DNA of 64,000 nt, from positions 6,874-70,873 of the forward strand of contig JBIKKP010000001.1 in the NCBI GenBank assembly GCA_044360285.1. Direction: 5' to 3'. Below, piece by piece: positions 46,438 to 58,810 of this stretch. The notes beneath the pieces were generated by a model that saw nothing but the letters and a program-made list of their open reading frames with translations, searched no databases and was not told where the DNA came from. Position 1 is the first letter of the stretch. Each line of letters starts with the position of its first letter. The stretch comes from Rickettsiales bacterium (GTDB lineage: Bacteria > Pseudomonadota > Alphaproteobacteria > Rickettsiales > UBA1997). Both the position numbers and the translations under genes were made by a program.

Positions 46438-47370
46438 ATGATTAAAAAAAATGACATCATCGATATCGTCTCGCCTGGTACGGCGTGCAGTTTGGCAGAG
46501 ATTTTAGAAATTGAAAATTACGTCAAAAAAATTGGCCTAAAATCACGAATTTTTTTGCACGATGAAACTGCGATGAATAAATCAGCAAGCAGCGAATTTG
46601 CAGGAATCGCGCCAAAAAAACGCTTCGAACAATTTAAAAAATCAGTTGAAAGCAAAGACTCAAAAATAATTTGGTGCACGCGCGGAGGCTACGGCAGCGC
46701 GGAAATTCTGCAGTTTCTAGAAAAACTTCCCAAACCAAAAACTAAAAAAATTCTTATCGGATTCTCCGACATAACTTCGCTAAACAAGCTGTTGATTGAG
46801 AAATGGAATTGGCAAATTGTGAGTGCACCGATGCTGATCCAGCTTGCCTCAAACACGGTTTCAAAAAAAGCCGAAAAAGGAATTTTGGATTTAATTTTTG
46901 GAAAAAATTCTGAATTAAAATATCAGCTAACGGCGCTTTCAGCTAAGAAATCGGCGGTTGTGGCGCCAATTGTTGGAGGATGTTTAAGCGTTCTTTGCGG
47001 ACATTTTGGCACAAAAAATAATCTCAACTGGCAGGGAAAAATTTTATTCCTCGAAGACGAAGGAGAAACAGGCGAGCGGCTTGATCGCTATTTTAGTCAA
47101 TTGCTGACAATCATTGGTGAAACAAAAAAAATTCCTGCGGCAATTTTACTTGGAAATTTTTTGCAGGCCAATTTGCACGGCACTCCGAAAGCAAAAAATG
47201 TTGAGATTGCCATCGAGAAATTTGCTAAAAATTTAGCTGAAAAAAAATTATCAATTCCACTTTTTGTGGAAAAAACTAAGTGCCTTGGACATAGCAAAGA
47301 CATGCTTCCGCTCGTGCTTGGTTCGGAAGCGAAAATTGATAAGAATTTGCAACTCACTCAAATCCTCTAA
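46438..47370 (+). CDS. ldcA: LD-carboxypeptidase (muramoyltetrapeptide carboxypeptidase, S66)
   Basis: GGYGSAEIL, GFSDITSL, LEDEGE, GH. Confidence 0.75.
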   Translation: MIKKNDIIDIVSPGTACSLAEILEIENYVKKIGLKSRIFLHDETAMNKSASSEFAGIAPKKRFEQFKKSVESKDSKIIWCTRGGYGSAEILQFLEKLPKPKTKKILIGFSDITSLNKLLIEKWNWQIVSAPMLIQLASNTVSKKAEKGILDLIFGKNSELKYQLTALSAKKSAVVAPIVGGCLSVLCGHFGTKNNLNWQGKILFLEDEGETGERLDRYFSQLLTIIGETKKIPAAILLGNFLQANLHGTPKAKNVEIAIEKFAKNLAEKKLSIPLFVEKTKCLGHSKDMLPLVLGSEAKIDKNLQLTQIL

Positions 47371-47387
47371 CACCGCCATCTTCTACC

Positions 47388-47521
47388 ACCTCGTCATCCT
47401 TTACAACCTCGTCATCCTTTACAACCTCGTCATCCTTGAATTGCATAGCAATTCGAGGATCTCTTTTGCTCAACGCTAAACAAAACTAGATCCTCGAAGC
47501 CTTTCGGCTTCAAGGATGACG
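47388..47521. repeat. palindromic element (family A) whose left arm is tandemly triplicated (18-bp unit)
   Basis: acctcgtcatcctttaca at 47388-47405 and 47406-47423, with a third diverging copy from 47424. Outer arms cgtcatccttgaa (47428-47440) / ttcaaggatgacg (47509-47521). Inner arms cgaggatc / gatcctcg. Hairpin gaagcc-tttc-ggcttc. Confidence 0.85.
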
Positions 47522-47635: not shown

Positions 47636-48820
47636 ATGACTGAATCGACTCACGAAAATAAACGAATGACCATCAATTTTGGACCACAGCACCCGGCAGC
47701 GCACGGTGTGTTACGTCTGGTTTTGGAAATGGATGGCGAAGTTGTCACTCGCGCCGACCCTCATATTGGCTTGCTGCATCGTGGCACTGAGAAACTCATC
47801 GAACACAAAACTTATCTGCAAGCTGTTCCATATTTTGACCGCCTAGACTATGTGTCGCCAATGTGTCAGGAGCATGCTTACGCCCTTGCTGTTGAAAAAC
47901 TTTTGGGCTGCAAAATTCCGCTGCGTGCCAGCTATATTCGTGTGCTCTTTTCTGAAATTACACGCCTGCTTAATCACATCATGGCAGTCACAACCCAGGC
48001 CCTTGACGTTGGGGCAATGACGCCACTTTTGTGGATGTTTGAAGAGCGCGAAAAAATGATGGGATTTTATGAAAAAGTTTCGGGATCGCGCATGCACGCC
48101 GCTTACATTCGCCCAGGCGGAGTTCACCAAGACTTGCCAGACGGTCTTGAAGACGAGATCATGAAATTCACCAAGCAGCACGAAAAATACATCGACGACT
48201 TGGAAGGGCTGCTTACCGACAACCGAATCTTCAAGCAGCGTATGGTTGAAATCGGCGTGGTGTCAAAGCAAGAGGCTTTGGATTGGGGGTTTTCTGGACC
48301 AATGATTCGCGGCTCGGGAATTGCTTGGGACCTACGCAAAAGCCAGCCTTACGAAATTTATGACCAACTTGAGTTCGATATTCCAGTTGGAAAAAACGGC
48401 GATTCTTATGACCGCTATCTCATCCGCGTTGAGGAAATGCGTCAGTCGCTGAAGATGATCAAACAATGTTTGGAAAAAATGCCGGAAGGCGAAATCTGCG
48501 TCGATGATCCAAAAATTGCCCCACCAAAAAGAGGCGACATGAAGGGCGACATGGAATCGCTGATCAACCACTTCAAACTTTACACCGAAGGCTATCACGT
48601 GCCAGCCGGCGAGGCTTATGGCTGCGTGGAAGCACCAAAAGGTGAATTTGGTGTTTACGTAATTTCGGATGGCTCAAACAAACCGCACCGCTGCCGCGTT
48701 CGTGCGCCAGGTTTTGCGCATTTGCAAGGTTTGGAATTTATGGCGAAAGGCCATATGCTTGCTGACGTTGTTACGGTGATCTCAACGCAAGACATCGTAT
48801 TTGGCGAAGTCGATCGTTAA
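47636..48820 (+). CDS. nuoD: NADH-quinone oxidoreductase subunit D
   Basis: [22 protein letters not shown], ...[10 protein letters not shown] terminus. Confidence 0.95.
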
Positions 48821-52288: not shown

Positions 52289-53449
52289 CTAAACCAACTT
52301 CTTCAGCTTCTCAGCCAAATCAGTTTTTTCCCAAGAAAATCCGCCGTCAGCCTCGGGGTTGCGACCAAAGTGGCCGTAGGTTGCAGTGCGTTTGTAAATT
52401 GGACGATTTAGTTGCAAATGCGTACGAATTCCGCGTGGGCTGAGGTCAACAAGATTGTCGATAATTTTTACCAATTCTTCGCCATGAACAATTCCGGTTC
52501 CGTGACTATCTACGTAAAGTGAAAGCGGTTTTGAAACGCCAATTGCGTAAGAAATTTGAATTGTGCAACGCTTAGCCAAACCAGCCGCCACAACGTTTTT
52601 CGCCAAATAGCGCGCCATGTATGCAGCAGAACGATCAACTTTTGTTGGATCTTTTCCAGAGAAAGCACCGCCGCCGTGTGGAGCTGCACCGCCGTAAGTA
52701 TCAACGATGATTTTACGACCAGTTAAACCAGCGTCACCATCAGGTCCGCCAATCACAAATTTTCCAGTTGGATTAACTAAGAATTTTTCTTCTTTGCACA
52801 TCCAGCCATTTGGCAATGACTTCTCAACATAAGGCCTGATTGCATCGCGAACCTGTTGTTGCGTCATGCCTTCTTTGTGTTGGATCGACACCAAAACAGT
52901 TTCAGCGTGAGTTGGAACGCCATCAACATAATGCAAAGTCACTTGGCTTTTTGCATCAGGGCCAATGTCGCGAAGTGCACCAGACCTGGTTGCGTCCATG
53001 ATGTTGTGTAAAATTCTGTGCGCATAATAAATTGCTGCCGGCATTAAAACTTCGGTTTCGTTGCAGGCATAGCCAAACATAATTCCTTGGTCTCCCGCGC
53101 CTTCATCTTTAGAACCAACTGCATCAACACCAACTGCAATGTCAGCAGATTGACCATGGATCAAGTTAGTGATTTCAAGATTTTTCCAGTGAAAGCCGTC
53201 TTGCTCATAGCCAATTTCTTTGACGGTATTTCGGATGATATTTTCAACTTCCACTTTTGAAATTTCTGGCGCACGAATTTCGCCACCAATCACAACACGG
53301 TTAGTGGTTGCAAAAGTTTCAATTGCTAAGCGCGAGTAAGGGTCTTTGGCAAGATAGGCGTCAACTAAACTGTCAGAAATTTGGTCGCAGATTTTGTCAG
53401 GATGACCTTCGGAAACTGATTCCGAAGTGAATAAAAAGTTTTTTGGCAT
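52289..53449 (-). CDS. metK: S-adenosylmethionine synthase
   Basis: [35 protein letters not shown]. Confidence 0.95.
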
Positions 53450-53501: not shown

Positions 53502-54214
53502 TTAGAATCTTTTTAGATATCCAAAGCGAACTGTCGAATAGTGCGAATCAAGTCCAGCAAGCTTCCCACTATATTTTTGAAAGGAGAAGCGAATCGCATC
53601 ATCAGAGTTTTTAAAATGCTTAATTTGAAATCCAAGCCCGTAAATCCCTGTTGTTTCATGGTTTTTTTGGGCGATTAATGAACCATTTGACTTAACATAG
53701 CTTGTGCGGCTTCTCACATCTGCAGCGCCAATTTCAGCAAAAAGCTCGAAGAGATTTTTTTCAACTGGCATAAAAAATAACGCCGAAAAATTCACGTGAT
53801 CCATTTTAAAAATAGCGCGTCGAGCCAGTGGTCCGGCATCTTGAAAGGCTATGTTATCAAGCTCAGTTTGTGCCCAATTCCACTGCAAACCAAGATAATC
53901 GTGAATGCGGAAATGTTGACCCAAAGCAATGTTTTCAATGTCGCGCAGCTGGCTGAAAATATCGTGCGAAGTTTTGAAATCTACATTCGGCCCGCCGCCT
54001 GTAATCACCGGAGCGCTATATTCAAAGGTGAAATAACTTTTTAGATAAAGTTTTGATTTAGATAAAGTTTTGACCACGGATTGGTAGTAATCGAGCTAAC
54101 ATTACCCGCTCCATTATTTGATGATCCACCAGCTGGCGGTGTGTTGTAAGGCCATTCCTGACTGAAAGCTGATTGCGAGAACAGTAAAAATGCGGCGGCT
54201 AAAAATTTTTTCAT
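53502..54214 (-). pseudogene. outer-membrane beta-barrel protein gene interrupted by a 17-bp tandem duplication (frameshift)
   Basis: AGGAGA + ATG at 54214 gives the signal peptide MKKFLAAAFLLFSQSAFSQ..., which stops at 54041. The body ORF 53502..54077 is in another frame and ends ...VRFGYLKRF. Removing one 17-bp copy restores a 231-aa ORF. Confidence 0.75.
54040..54073. repeat. perfect 17-bp direct tandem duplication
   Basis: tttagataaagttttga at 54040-54056 and again at 54057-54073. Confidence 0.95.
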
Positions 54215-54264
54215 AAATCTCCTGAGTTAGTCATGCCGAAACTGTCGAAGCATGACTATATTTT

Positions 54265-55656
54265 TTAATTTATTGCCGACTCAATTCGTCTTAGAACCTC
54301 GGCTTTTCCAAGAATCTCCACTACATCAAAAATTCCGCCAGCAGAAGATTTGGAGAATGTCAAAACCAGACGAAGTGCTGGTCCAAAATCTTTAATTTTT
54401 AGATTTTTTGTAGCAGCAAATTCGTTGAAAAAGTTTTTAATTCCATCGTGACTCCAATCTTCTAAAGCAGACATCTGCAAGGATAAATCGCTAAGCAGAA
54501 ATTTTTTTTCAGCGACGTCTTTTTGCTCAACTTCATCAAAATTTGCCGCGGCGTTATCCAAATAAATCGCCAGATTTTTTTCCAAATCACCAAGTAACTC
54601 CGCGCGTTCTTTGACAAATTTTAGCGCCAGTTTTAGACGACTTCTTTCAACATCTTGCAAGTTTTTCCAACTTTCGTTTCGCTCATAAAGTAGCGCTAAC
54701 AGCTGGTCCTCTGGTTTTTCTTTGATGTAATTTTTATTGACGAAAGCAAGTTTCATAAAATCAAAACGCGACGGCGAGCGACCAACTTTTTCTAAAGAAA
54801 ACCACTCACGCGCTTGTGCATCAGAAATAATTTCGGCATCGCCATGTGACCAACCAAGGCGCAGCAAATAATTGCGCATTGCTTCTGGCAGATAGCCCGC
54901 TTGCTTGTAATCAATTACCGAAGTTGCGCCGTGACGCTTCGACATTTTTGCGCCGTCAGATCCGTGAATCAGCGGAATATGTGCGAATTTTGGCACGTTC
55001 CACGACATTGCATCGAAAATTACTTTTTGGCGGAAGGCGTTGTTTAAGTGGTCGTCACCACGAATTATGTGCGTAATTTCCATATCATGATCATCAACTA
55101 CAACCGCCAGCATGTAAGTTGGAGAGCCATCAGAGCGCAACATCACCAAATCATCAAGTTCAGAATTTTTTACCCTCACCTCACCTTGCACCAAATCGTT
55201 AATTACCGTTTCGCCCTCAAGCGGCGCTTTAATTCGAACCACCGGTTTTACCGATGAACTTTGCGAATTTATTTTGTCGCGCCACGGACTTTTAAAACGA
55301 AAAACCTGATTTTTTTTCTCAGCCATCTCGCGCATTTCGGCAAGTTCTTCGGCGGAAGTGTAGCACAAATAAGCCTGATTTTTTTCGAGCAATTTTTGTG
55401 CAACTTCCCTGTGACGCGCAAGATTTTTTGACTGCAAAACAAAATTGTCATCATGCTTCAAGCCAAGCCAATCAAGGCCCTGCAAAATTGCGTTGATTGC
55501 TTCTGCGGTCGATCTTTTTTCATCAGTGTCTTCGATACGCAGCAAAAATTTTCCGTTATTTTTTTTAGCAAAAAGATAATTGAACAAAGCAGTTCGTGCC
55601 CCGCCAATGTGCAAATAGCCGGTTGGCGATGGAGCAAAACGGGTGATGATAGACAT
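54265..55656 (-). CDS. gltX: glutamate--tRNA ligase
   Basis: RFAPSPTGYLHIGGARTAL (HIGH) and KMSKR. Confidence 0.95.
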   Translation of the reverse strand: MSIITRFAPSPTGYLHIGGARTALFNYLFAKKNNGKFLLRIEDTDEKRSTAEAINAILQGLDWLGLKHDDNFVLQSKNLARHREVAQKLLEKNQAYLCYTSAEELAEMREMAEKKNQVFRFKSPWRDKINSQSSSVKPVVRIKAPLEGETVINDLVQGEVRVKNSELDDLVMLRSDGSPTYMLAVVVDDHDMEITHIIRGDDHLNNAFRQKVIFDAMSWNVPKFAHIPLIHGSDGAKMSKRHGATSVIDYKQAGYLPEAMRNYLLRLGWSHGDAEIISDAQAREWFSLEKVGRSPSRFDFMKLAFVNKNYIKEKPEDQLLALLYERNESWKNLQDVERSRLKLALKFVKERAELLGDLEKNLAIYLDNAAANFDEVEQKDVAEKKFLLSDLSLQMSALEDWSHDGIKNFFNEFAATKNLKIKDFGPALRLVLTFSKSSAGGIFDVVEILGKAEVLRRIESAIN

Positions 55657-57941: not shown

Positions 57942-58595
57942 GTGCTCATTCTTGCCTTCGACACCACAGCTGGAGGTCTTTCTGTAGCATTGCTTAATGA
58001 TGATAAAATTATCGCACTAACTTCGGTTTCCCTCTCCAATTCGCAGTCACAATTACTCATCCCAGAAATTGAAAAAATTTTACGCGAGCAAAAAATTTGG
58101 TATCAAGACCTTGGTTTAATTGCTGCAACCAATGGACCTGGCAGCTTCACTGGCAGCAGAATTGGCCTGAGCTGCGCTCGCATTATCAAAGCTGCAACAA
58201 ACTTACCACTAATTTTAGTTAATGGCCTTGAAGCCATGGCGTTCAAGTATCGCGGGTGCAATAAAAATATCTTTATTGCACTTGATGCAAGCGGCGATGA
58301 ATTTTTTTGCGCGGAATTTAGAGAATCAGAAATTGTGCAAGAGCCTTGTCTAATAAAAGCTGCAGAGCTTGCGGCAATCGCGCCAGAAGAATCATTTTTT
58401 CTTTGTGGTTCAGGCAAAAAAGCAGCGGCAGAAATTTTAAAAAATCAGCAATTTGAAAGCAGCGAAGGTGATGATGTTTTAAGCGCCGATGTGGTGGGGC
58501 TTTTAGGTTTAGAGAAATTTAAAAATGGGGAAGTGTTAGAGAATCTTGATCCGCTTTATCTGCGGGGACCGAGGATTGAGGCGAGGAAGAAATGA
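57942..58595 (+). CDS. tsaB: tRNA t6A37 biosynthesis protein TsaB (YeaZ)
   Basis: GTG start. ILAFDTT and GPGSFTGSRIG motifs. Confidence 0.85.
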   Translation: MLILAFDTTAGGLSVALLNDDKIIALTSVSLSNSQSQLLIPEIEKILREQKIWYQDLGLIAATNGPGSFTGSRIGLSCARIIKAATNLPLILVNGLEAMAFKYRGCNKNIFIALDASGDEFFCAEFRESEIVQEPCLIKAAELAAIAPEESFFLCGSGKKAAAEILKNQQFESSEGDDVLSADVVGLLGLEKFKNGEVLENLDPLYLRGPRIEARKK

Positions 58596-58735
58596 GGAAG
58601 AAATAGAGTCTTGTTGGACCAGCCCTACTCCGCTCGCGTTGCGAGCTTCGAAGGGCAGCCTTCGCTCTAACGATCTCCGTCTGACAGTCCAGCCCAAAGG
58701 CCGGCCTGCCGGCCGTAGCTCGTAAGAGCGAAGGC

Positions 58736-58810
58736 TGGAGGCCAGGGTCGGAATCGAACCGACGAATGAGAGCTTTGCAGGCCCTTGCATTACCACTTTG
58801 CTACCCGGCC
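58736..58810 (-). tRNA. tRNA-Cys (GCA), CCA encoded
   Basis: Minus strand: GGCCGGG-TAGCAAAGTGGTAATGC-AAGGGCCTGCAAAGCTCT-CATTC-GTCGGTTCGATTCCGAC-CCTGGCC-T-CCA. 7-bp acceptor stem, anticodon loop CTGCAAA, T-loop GGTTCGATTCC. Confidence 0.9.

Follow-up and report, generated by a model that had tools for sequence, protein, structure and literature searches.

Simple-sequence-repeat contingency loci, such as those of Neisseria opa (CTCTT) and the tetranucleotide loci of Haemophilus, consist of many copies of 1- to 7-nt units and are maintained by selection. Changes in coding regions can also come from spontaneous intragenic tandem duplications. In the passages of PMC4022640 and PMC4243769 that cite Waite et al. 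(2001, 2003), such duplications in cap3A, cap8E, and tts account for phase variation of the pneumococcal capsule, and PMC4243769 describes them there as reversible. An intragenic duplication in phcA of Ralstonia is likewise reported to revert (Poussier 2003, as cited in 10.1101/2023.04.27.538605), and two-unit tandem repeats in penA of Burkholderia thailandensis revert at 9e-7 to 3.6e-5 (PMC4169377).

Here we analyzed a stretch of 64,000 nucleotides from a Rickettsiales bacterium (referred to below as the window), in which a gene for a small outer-membrane protein (OMP) is interrupted by two tandem copies of a 17-nt unit. The host is an uncultured alphaproteobacterium, probably from freshwater. 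With a probability of about 0.72, we regard the locus as a recent loss-of-function allele, that is, a young pseudogene, of a conserved gene for a small OMP β-barrel. The features expected of a pseudogene were all found: a frame disrupted relative to intact orthologues, past purifying selection, and little subsequent decay. Events of this kind are known already, and the locus adds an instance of them without revealing a new mechanism.

The locus resembles simple-sequence contingency loci in that repeat copy number shifts the frame near the junction of signal peptide and mature protein in an OMP gene. It differs from them in having two copies of a 17-nt unit, an arrangement absent from every relative; a many-copy tract of 1- to 7-nt units conserved among relatives was not found, the segment being a single unit both in the one intact allele (contig L001) and in a sister species. 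The pneumococcal capsule duplications are similar in that a de novo two-copy duplication, precisely removable in principle, abolishes expression of an ORF for a surface component, but they affect a capsule enzyme rather than an OMP, and they are described as reversible, whereas at our locus no isogenic ON/OFF pair was found and the only intact allele is an older haplotype. An out-of-frame intragenic tandem duplication predicted to abolish the product, as in cap3A, is present, and alleles differing only by the duplication were not found among the assemblies, L001 carrying three nearby single-nucleotide polymorphisms (SNPs) as well. In Burkholderia penA the repeats are also de novo, two-unit, and within a coding region, but they are in frame and alter enzyme specificity, whereas the OMP repeat is out of frame and gives a null allele; the penA reversion rates, about 1e-6 to 4e-5, are a plausible upper range for instability at the OMP repeat.

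Table 1. Features of the OMP locus in the window, SNPs that distinguish the intact allele, and contigs in which the two-copy allele was read
Feature	Position or source	Strand	Basis or remark
Tandem duplication, 2 x 17 bp, frameshifting lesion	54040..54073	-	Tandem Repeats Finder and comparison of the copies; unit corresponds to codons 48-53 of the ancestral gene
5' fragment ORF, 57 aa, MKKFLAAAFLLFSQSAFSQEWPY...LNQNFI	54041..54214	-	ORF list
3' fragment, 191-aa open frame, nominal GTG start, ends ...RFGYLKRF	53502..54077	-	ORF list, homologue alignment, AlphaFold, Foldseek
Shine-Dalgarno AGGAGA	54218..54223	-	Read directly; 3 nt (TTT) 5' of the ATG at 54214
Sigma-70-like promoter match, TTGAGT-18-TATAGT	54255..54284	-	Overlaps the gltX stop codon
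gltX, glutamyl-tRNA synthetase, upstream neighbor	54265..55656	-	Pfam tRNA-synt_1c on the identical protein; tblastn synteny
metK, S-adenosylmethionine synthetase, downstream neighbor	52289..53449	-	Look-ups and tblastn synteny
SNP, Ala36Val	54108		L001 vs window
SNP inside the unit, A/C, Lys49Gln			Window A, L001 C
SNP, synonymous, ACC/ACT	54027		L001 vs window
Contig L002	JGI 3300042321		Two-copy allele read
Contig L003	JGI 3300042326		Two-copy allele read
Contig L005	JGI 3300034064		Two-copy allele read
Contig L004	ENA ERZ27272073		Two-copy allele read
Contig L011	Logan SRR27421182		Two-copy allele read
Contig L018	Logan SRR10955855		Two-copy allele read

The junction lies between gltX and metK and runs, on the minus strand, ...CCGTGG TCAAAACTTTATCTAAA TCAAAACTTTATCTAAA AAGTT... 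(Table 1). Tandem Repeats Finder reports a perfect repeat of period 17 with 2.0 copies and 100% matches, the unit being TTTAGATAAAGTTTTGA on the plus strand, and direct comparison confirmed that the copies are identical. As read from the sequence, the repeat cannot be extended beyond either end, and neither a direct repeat nor microhomology bordering the unit was visible when the flanks were read by eye. Only about 6e-6 perfect 17-bp tandems of this period would be expected by chance in 64 kb of the window's base composition. Since 17 is not a multiple of 3, the duplication causes a frameshift and a premature stop. The 57-aa ORF consists of a Sec-type signal peptide (MKKFLAAAFLLFSQSAFS/QE), a linker rich in P, G, S, and N, and the frameshifted tail NQNFI, and it ends at a TAA in copy 2. 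The 191-aa fragment contains the entire 8-stranded barrel with the C-terminal ...GYLKRF and lacks a signal peptide, and no Shine-Dalgarno sequence was seen before its GTG on inspection. The two ORFs overlap by 37 nt, within the repeat, and removal of one copy yields a 696-nt ORF of 231 aa with the junction ...NPWSKLYLKSYFTFEY.... These results bear out all that the initial annotation had observed here, which had described a GTG-started ORF without a signal peptide ending in a terminal Phe, an upstream AGGAGA-N3-ATG opening a 57-codon signal-peptide ORF, frames that meet within a perfect 17-bp duplication, and a 231-aa precursor on deletion of either copy. Its identification of the duplication as the inactivating lesion also holds, as this is the sole lesion that we found and the rest of the ORF is intact. 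No paralogue of the gene was present within the 64-kb window.

The sigma-70-like match upstream of the gene may possibly be its own promoter; two such sites were found in the sequence against 2.2 expected in shuffles, and the match is not significant alone. Between the gltX stop codon and the ribosome-binding site of the OMP gene lies an inverted repeat with 7-bp arms, GTCATGC...GCATGAC, and a loop of 13 nt (54230-54256, minus strand), which overlaps the final two bases of the promoter-like -10 hexamer. Lacking a T-run, it does not resemble a classical terminator, and it could be an operator or an RNA hairpin.

That the gene product is an 8-stranded outer-membrane β-barrel of the OmpA/Ail/OmpX type is well supported by homology and by structural modeling, in agreement with the initial annotation, which had called it an OMP β-barrel with a Sec signal peptide. 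A protein database search returned 23 related clusters, the top one (P0001) being the window's own 191-aa fragment, and seven homologues (P0005, P0006, P0008, P0012, P0018, P0019, and P0022) carry precomputed matches to PF13505 (OMP_b-brl). All 19 homologues that were read (196 to 237 aa) have a signal peptide followed by the same conserved barrel. An alignment of the repaired 231-aa protein with about 20 intact homologues, all with an equivalent N terminus, spans the whole sequence, and the repaired junction ...SKLYLKSYFTFEYSAPVI falls opposite ...GFFFKPYLSIEYSAPVI, at the beginning of the first strand. The signal peptide, read by eye, comprises MKK, the hydrophobic core FLAAAFLLF, and SQSAFS/QE, with no lipobox Cys. 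In the C-terminal β-signal ...RFGYLKRF, the terminal Phe, Y227, and L228 are invariant across 15 aligned sequences. An AlphaFold2 model of the repaired protein, built from the homologue alignment, has eight strands with a mean pLDDT of 77 (barrel mostly 80 to 96) and a disordered N-terminal linker at residues 18 to 45. The best Foldseek match in the PDB was the OmpA transmembrane domain (E 1.8e-9, TM 0.72); further top matches were Ail, OmpX, OmpW, and NspA. Taken together, these matches have E values of 1e-9 to 1e-5 and target-normalized TM scores of 0.6 to 0.73, at a sequence identity to solved structures of just 9 to 18%. The protein thus shares with the OmpA transmembrane domain, Ail/OmpX, OmpW, NspA, and PF13505 a signal peptide, an eight-stranded model, and a C-terminal Phe, but differs from the known small barrels in its disordered N-terminal linker of about 30 residues and in having no Pfam or NCBIfam match of its own (0 Pfam families at E<=1).

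A profile scan of GTDB species representatives with a 6-sequence alignment returned only relatives of 46 to 60% identity. Five of these were retrieved, all metagenome-assembled genomes: three labeled Rickettsiales or Rickettsia, with isolate names resembling lake samples, and two labeled "uncultured Rhizobium sp." An intact OMP gene stands beside metK in four of the five (L012, L013, L015, and L016), the fifth (L014) being cut by a contig end, and tblastn recovered the full gltX-OMP-metK order in three (L012, L013, and L015). In protein sequences from about 20 homologues, no repeat or disruption was found at the duplication site. The comparison with orthologues proposed in the initial annotation therefore found the two-copy arrangement in no relative. 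Judged by gene order and alignment, the OMP gene is a conserved, syntenic gene of the clade.

A sister species is represented by four contigs (L007 to L010) with about 86% nucleotide identity to the window, which are mutually identical over the gene region and differ by one SNP downstream of the gene. Here the unit is single copy, and the orthologue lacks its 5' end: an IS5-family element abuts codon 7 of the signal peptide. The element is about 0.88 kb long (L007, about 1826-2708), contains ORFs for DUF4096 and DDE_Tnp_1, and has terminal inverted repeats of about 23 bp, CTAAGAACCYGTCCTAAGTCTTT. Beyond it lie an N6/N4 methyltransferase gene and a LysR gene rather than gltX, the upstream gene order being rearranged. 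The frame of the remnant contains an in-frame TAG, and there is no start codon before the internal Leu/Met of a 128-aa gene call. On this evidence from the contigs, the same gene is inactivated independently, by a different mechanism, in the sister lineage. We considered and rejected two readings that would have left an intact copy in this species. A gene call on L010 (P0028; L010 85-825, 246 aa) was taken up as an intact orthologue, but the gene caller had read through the TAG as Gln; and L007 was taken as a truncated version of an intact L010, but the alignment shows the same sequence, broken in all four contigs. As it stands in a public protein collection, the P0028 call is an annotation artefact that makes a broken gene look intact. 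The sister species also has an extra ORF of 271 aa between metK and crcB.

Between the repaired window gene and the sister species, the OMP gene has a dN/dS of 0.09 with a dS of 0.82 (Nei-Gojobori), and metK has a dN/dS of 0.04. A dN/dS of 0.09 indicates long purifying selection, from which it follows that both lesions are young compared with the split of the two species. The window is densely coding, with leuA, pgi, rpoD, and dnaG present, which argues that the genome is not in general decay.

Identical two-copy DNA was read in six other assemblies, in contigs 99.93 to 100% identical to the window (Table 1), and exact-sequence look-ups found the exact 57-aa and 191-aa (or 168-aa) fragments recorded in NCBI, JGI, ENA, and Logan assemblies. 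The same allele is indicated in two more samples. JGI 3300044627 breaks at the repeat: the last bases of a 39-kb contig (L020, Ga0453694_0000473) are ...GG followed by one unit (copy 1), and a contig of 2.1 kb (L006, Ga0453694_0108283) opens 1 nt ahead of copy 2 with A, one unit, and AAGTT. The break maps to window position 54057, the boundary between the copies, and the start of L006 fits two copies in this sample. In JGI 3300059473 (NCBI GCA_041447075.1), where the allele was inferred from ORF layout alone, the 57-aa plus 191-aa arrangement is present, and the region is covered by two contigs with an overlap of about 380 nt. These breaks and overlaps might reflect mixed copy number within a sample. 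Allele counts here rest on exact-protein look-ups at the level of assemblies, and judged on that basis the two-copy null is the common allele in natural populations. A search of public JGI metagenome contigs with the exact DNA pattern of left flank plus unit, together with a protein-based scan, gave no match, and the species is seemingly absent from that collection. Contigs L004 and L005, although they come from two archives (ENA and JGI), both start at window position 54952, within gltX; they may break at a common point or derive from related source data. Within the two-copy population, no further stops were found in the 191-codon remainder. L004 carries Gly172Cys at a nearly invariant glycine, a single case that is compatible with relaxed constraint.

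An intact one-copy allele was found in a single assembly, Logan SRR27420222 (L001), where it encodes a 231-aa protein (P0029). Over 6.7 kb, L001 and the window are separated by the 17-bp indel and just four SNPs, three of which lie within 82 bp of the repeat (window 54027-54108, L001 3094-3158; Table 1); the probability of such clustering is 7e-6 if the 82-bp window is taken as specified in advance. The stretch around the repeat is about 200 times more diverged between L001 and the window than its surroundings; candidate sources are a recombination tract, a cluster of mutations, balancing selection, or a coalescence that is deeper here than elsewhere. Polarization with the sister species makes the C in the unit (Gln) ancestral and Val36 and ACT derived on the L001 lineage; derived states thus occur on both lineages. 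As both copies carry the A, the window lineage must have changed C to A first and duplicated the segment afterwards. L001, which keeps the ancestral C together with the linked SNPs, is therefore a separate, older haplotype rather than a revertant produced by precise excision. A one-copy allele with the TCAAAAC unit was not found in any assembly. The intact ancestral haplotype, known from this one assembly, persists at low frequency.

These alleles bear on the alternative that the locus is a reversible ON/OFF contingency locus, in which duplication and precise deletion of the 17-bp unit toggle the OMP and the OFF state dominates under pressure from phages or predators. One- and two-copy alleles do both occur in nature, in the neighboring SRA accessions SRR27420222 and SRR27421182, contig breaks coincide with the repeat or lie close to it in two samples (3300044627 and 3300059473), and the reversions in penA, the pneumococcal capsule genes, and Ralstonia phcA are precedents. 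We nevertheless consider a switch unlikely. The only one-copy allele carries the ancestral C and two linked SNPs, and the one-copy TCAAAAC allele is missing from every assembly; for this reason the ON-OFF switch that the initial annotation had offered as an option is not borne out. With just two copies and no bordering direct repeat, nothing suggests a sequence evolved for high-rate slippage, and about 20 homologues lack any repeat or disruption at the site. In addition, one two-copy haplotype is substituted at a conserved Gly, and the IS-associated rearrangement in the sister species, which removed the 5' end and the link to gltX, does not look reversible. The two-copy repeat could in principle be deleted precisely, with neither deletion nor use as a switch in evidence. 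A fuller form of this alternative, in which the switch is genuine and the OMP is a phage or predator receptor that is mostly OFF in nature and restored by rare precise deletions, is a little less likely again; if it were true, strong and fluctuating selection on one conserved surface protein would account for the SNP cluster, the contig breaks, and the parallel knock-out by an IS in the sister species.

The remaining alternatives are weaker. The duplication could be the 17-bp target-site footprint of a lost mobile element, which would leave its consequence, a null allele, unchanged; an IS has acted on this gene in the sister species, and there is no bordering microhomology that would explain simple slippage. 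This origin is improbable, as target duplications of 17 bp are unusual for bacterial IS elements and no remnant of an element lies between the copies. The IS5-family group found in the sister species is reported with 4-bp YTAR target duplications (10.1101/2023.04.27.538605). It is more doubtful still that the full-length protein is made through programmed -1 frameshifting or transcriptional slippage in the 37-nt overlap: the overlap is rich in A (TCAAAAC, CTAAAAAG) and the frames would be joined again by a -1 shift, but inspection found no X XXY YYZ heptamer in frame 0 within it, its longest A run is 5, well under the approximately 9 needed for transcriptional slippage, and the rejoined product would contain six extra residues where strand 1 begins. 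An assembly or sequencing artefact over a truly one-copy genome, for which there is only the general caveat that the sequence is probably metagenome assembled, can be practically dismissed, since the two-copy sequence recurs in six or more other assemblies, made from different samples and deposited at JGI, ENA, and Logan, which presumably represent different assembly pipelines, and the 34-bp repeat fits well within a single read.

Under the preferred reading, a young pseudogene, a 17-bp segment covering codons 48 to 53 would have been tandemly duplicated at the junction of the disordered linker and the first barrel strand, presumably by replication slippage or a template-switch error. Ribosomes that start at the real ATG would translate the signal peptide and linker and stop at the TAA in copy 2, giving the 57-aa product. 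The barrel part would lie in the other frame, lacking a ribosome-binding site, a signal peptide, and a recoding signal, with the result that no barrel would reach the outer membrane. As far as can be read from the DNA, no functional OMP would be made from the two-copy allele. The initial annotation had spoken of a very recent pseudogenization. Recency stands, given the otherwise intact ORF, the dN/dS of the gene, and an intact allele that still segregates; the word "very" needs qualification, as the two-copy allele has existed long enough, or has been successful enough, to be the majority allele across many independent metagenomes.

Other repeats are present in the window. A perfect tandem duplication of 2 x 11 bp, GAGGAAGAAAT, lies on the stop codon of a TsaD/TsaB-family ORF (57942-58595) at 58583-58604 on the plus strand; it is neutral, as one or two copies give the same protein end (...ARKK stop), and it shows that short de novo tandem duplications also occur elsewhere in the genome. 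At 4712-4818, a perfect tandem repeat of 33 bp x 3.2 with the GC-rich unit GGCGGAACCGTCGCGCGCGGCGGCACAAGTGGT lies inside a 1081-aa ORF without a Pfam match (2299-5544, minus strand). Each unit encodes 11 aa in frame, and the repeat departs strongly in composition from the window with its 42% GC. An 18-bp x 3.0 tandem repeat with 97% matches, TACAACCTCGTCATCCTT, occupies 47384-47437, in the gap between the ORFs at 46438-47370 and 47636-48820. The sole tRNA in the window is a tRNA-Cys (GCA) at 58736-58810 on the minus strand.

In gene annotation, the two ORFs are best joined into a single entry marked as a pseudogene. The locus illustrates clearly how, in nature, a conserved and syntenic OMP gene was lost independently in each of two sister lineages, in one by a short tandem duplication and in the other by an insertion sequence. 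A null allele that is common, together with loss of the gene in the sister species, indicates that loss of the OMP is at least tolerated. The null allele has possibly been selected, and one might speculate that loss is favored, for example, as an escape from a phage or predator that uses the protein. A null allele that predominates across environmental samples while an intact haplotype persists is the pattern expected when phages or grazers exploit a surface protein, and the difference between one and two copies is a ready marker for tracking such selection in metagenome time series.
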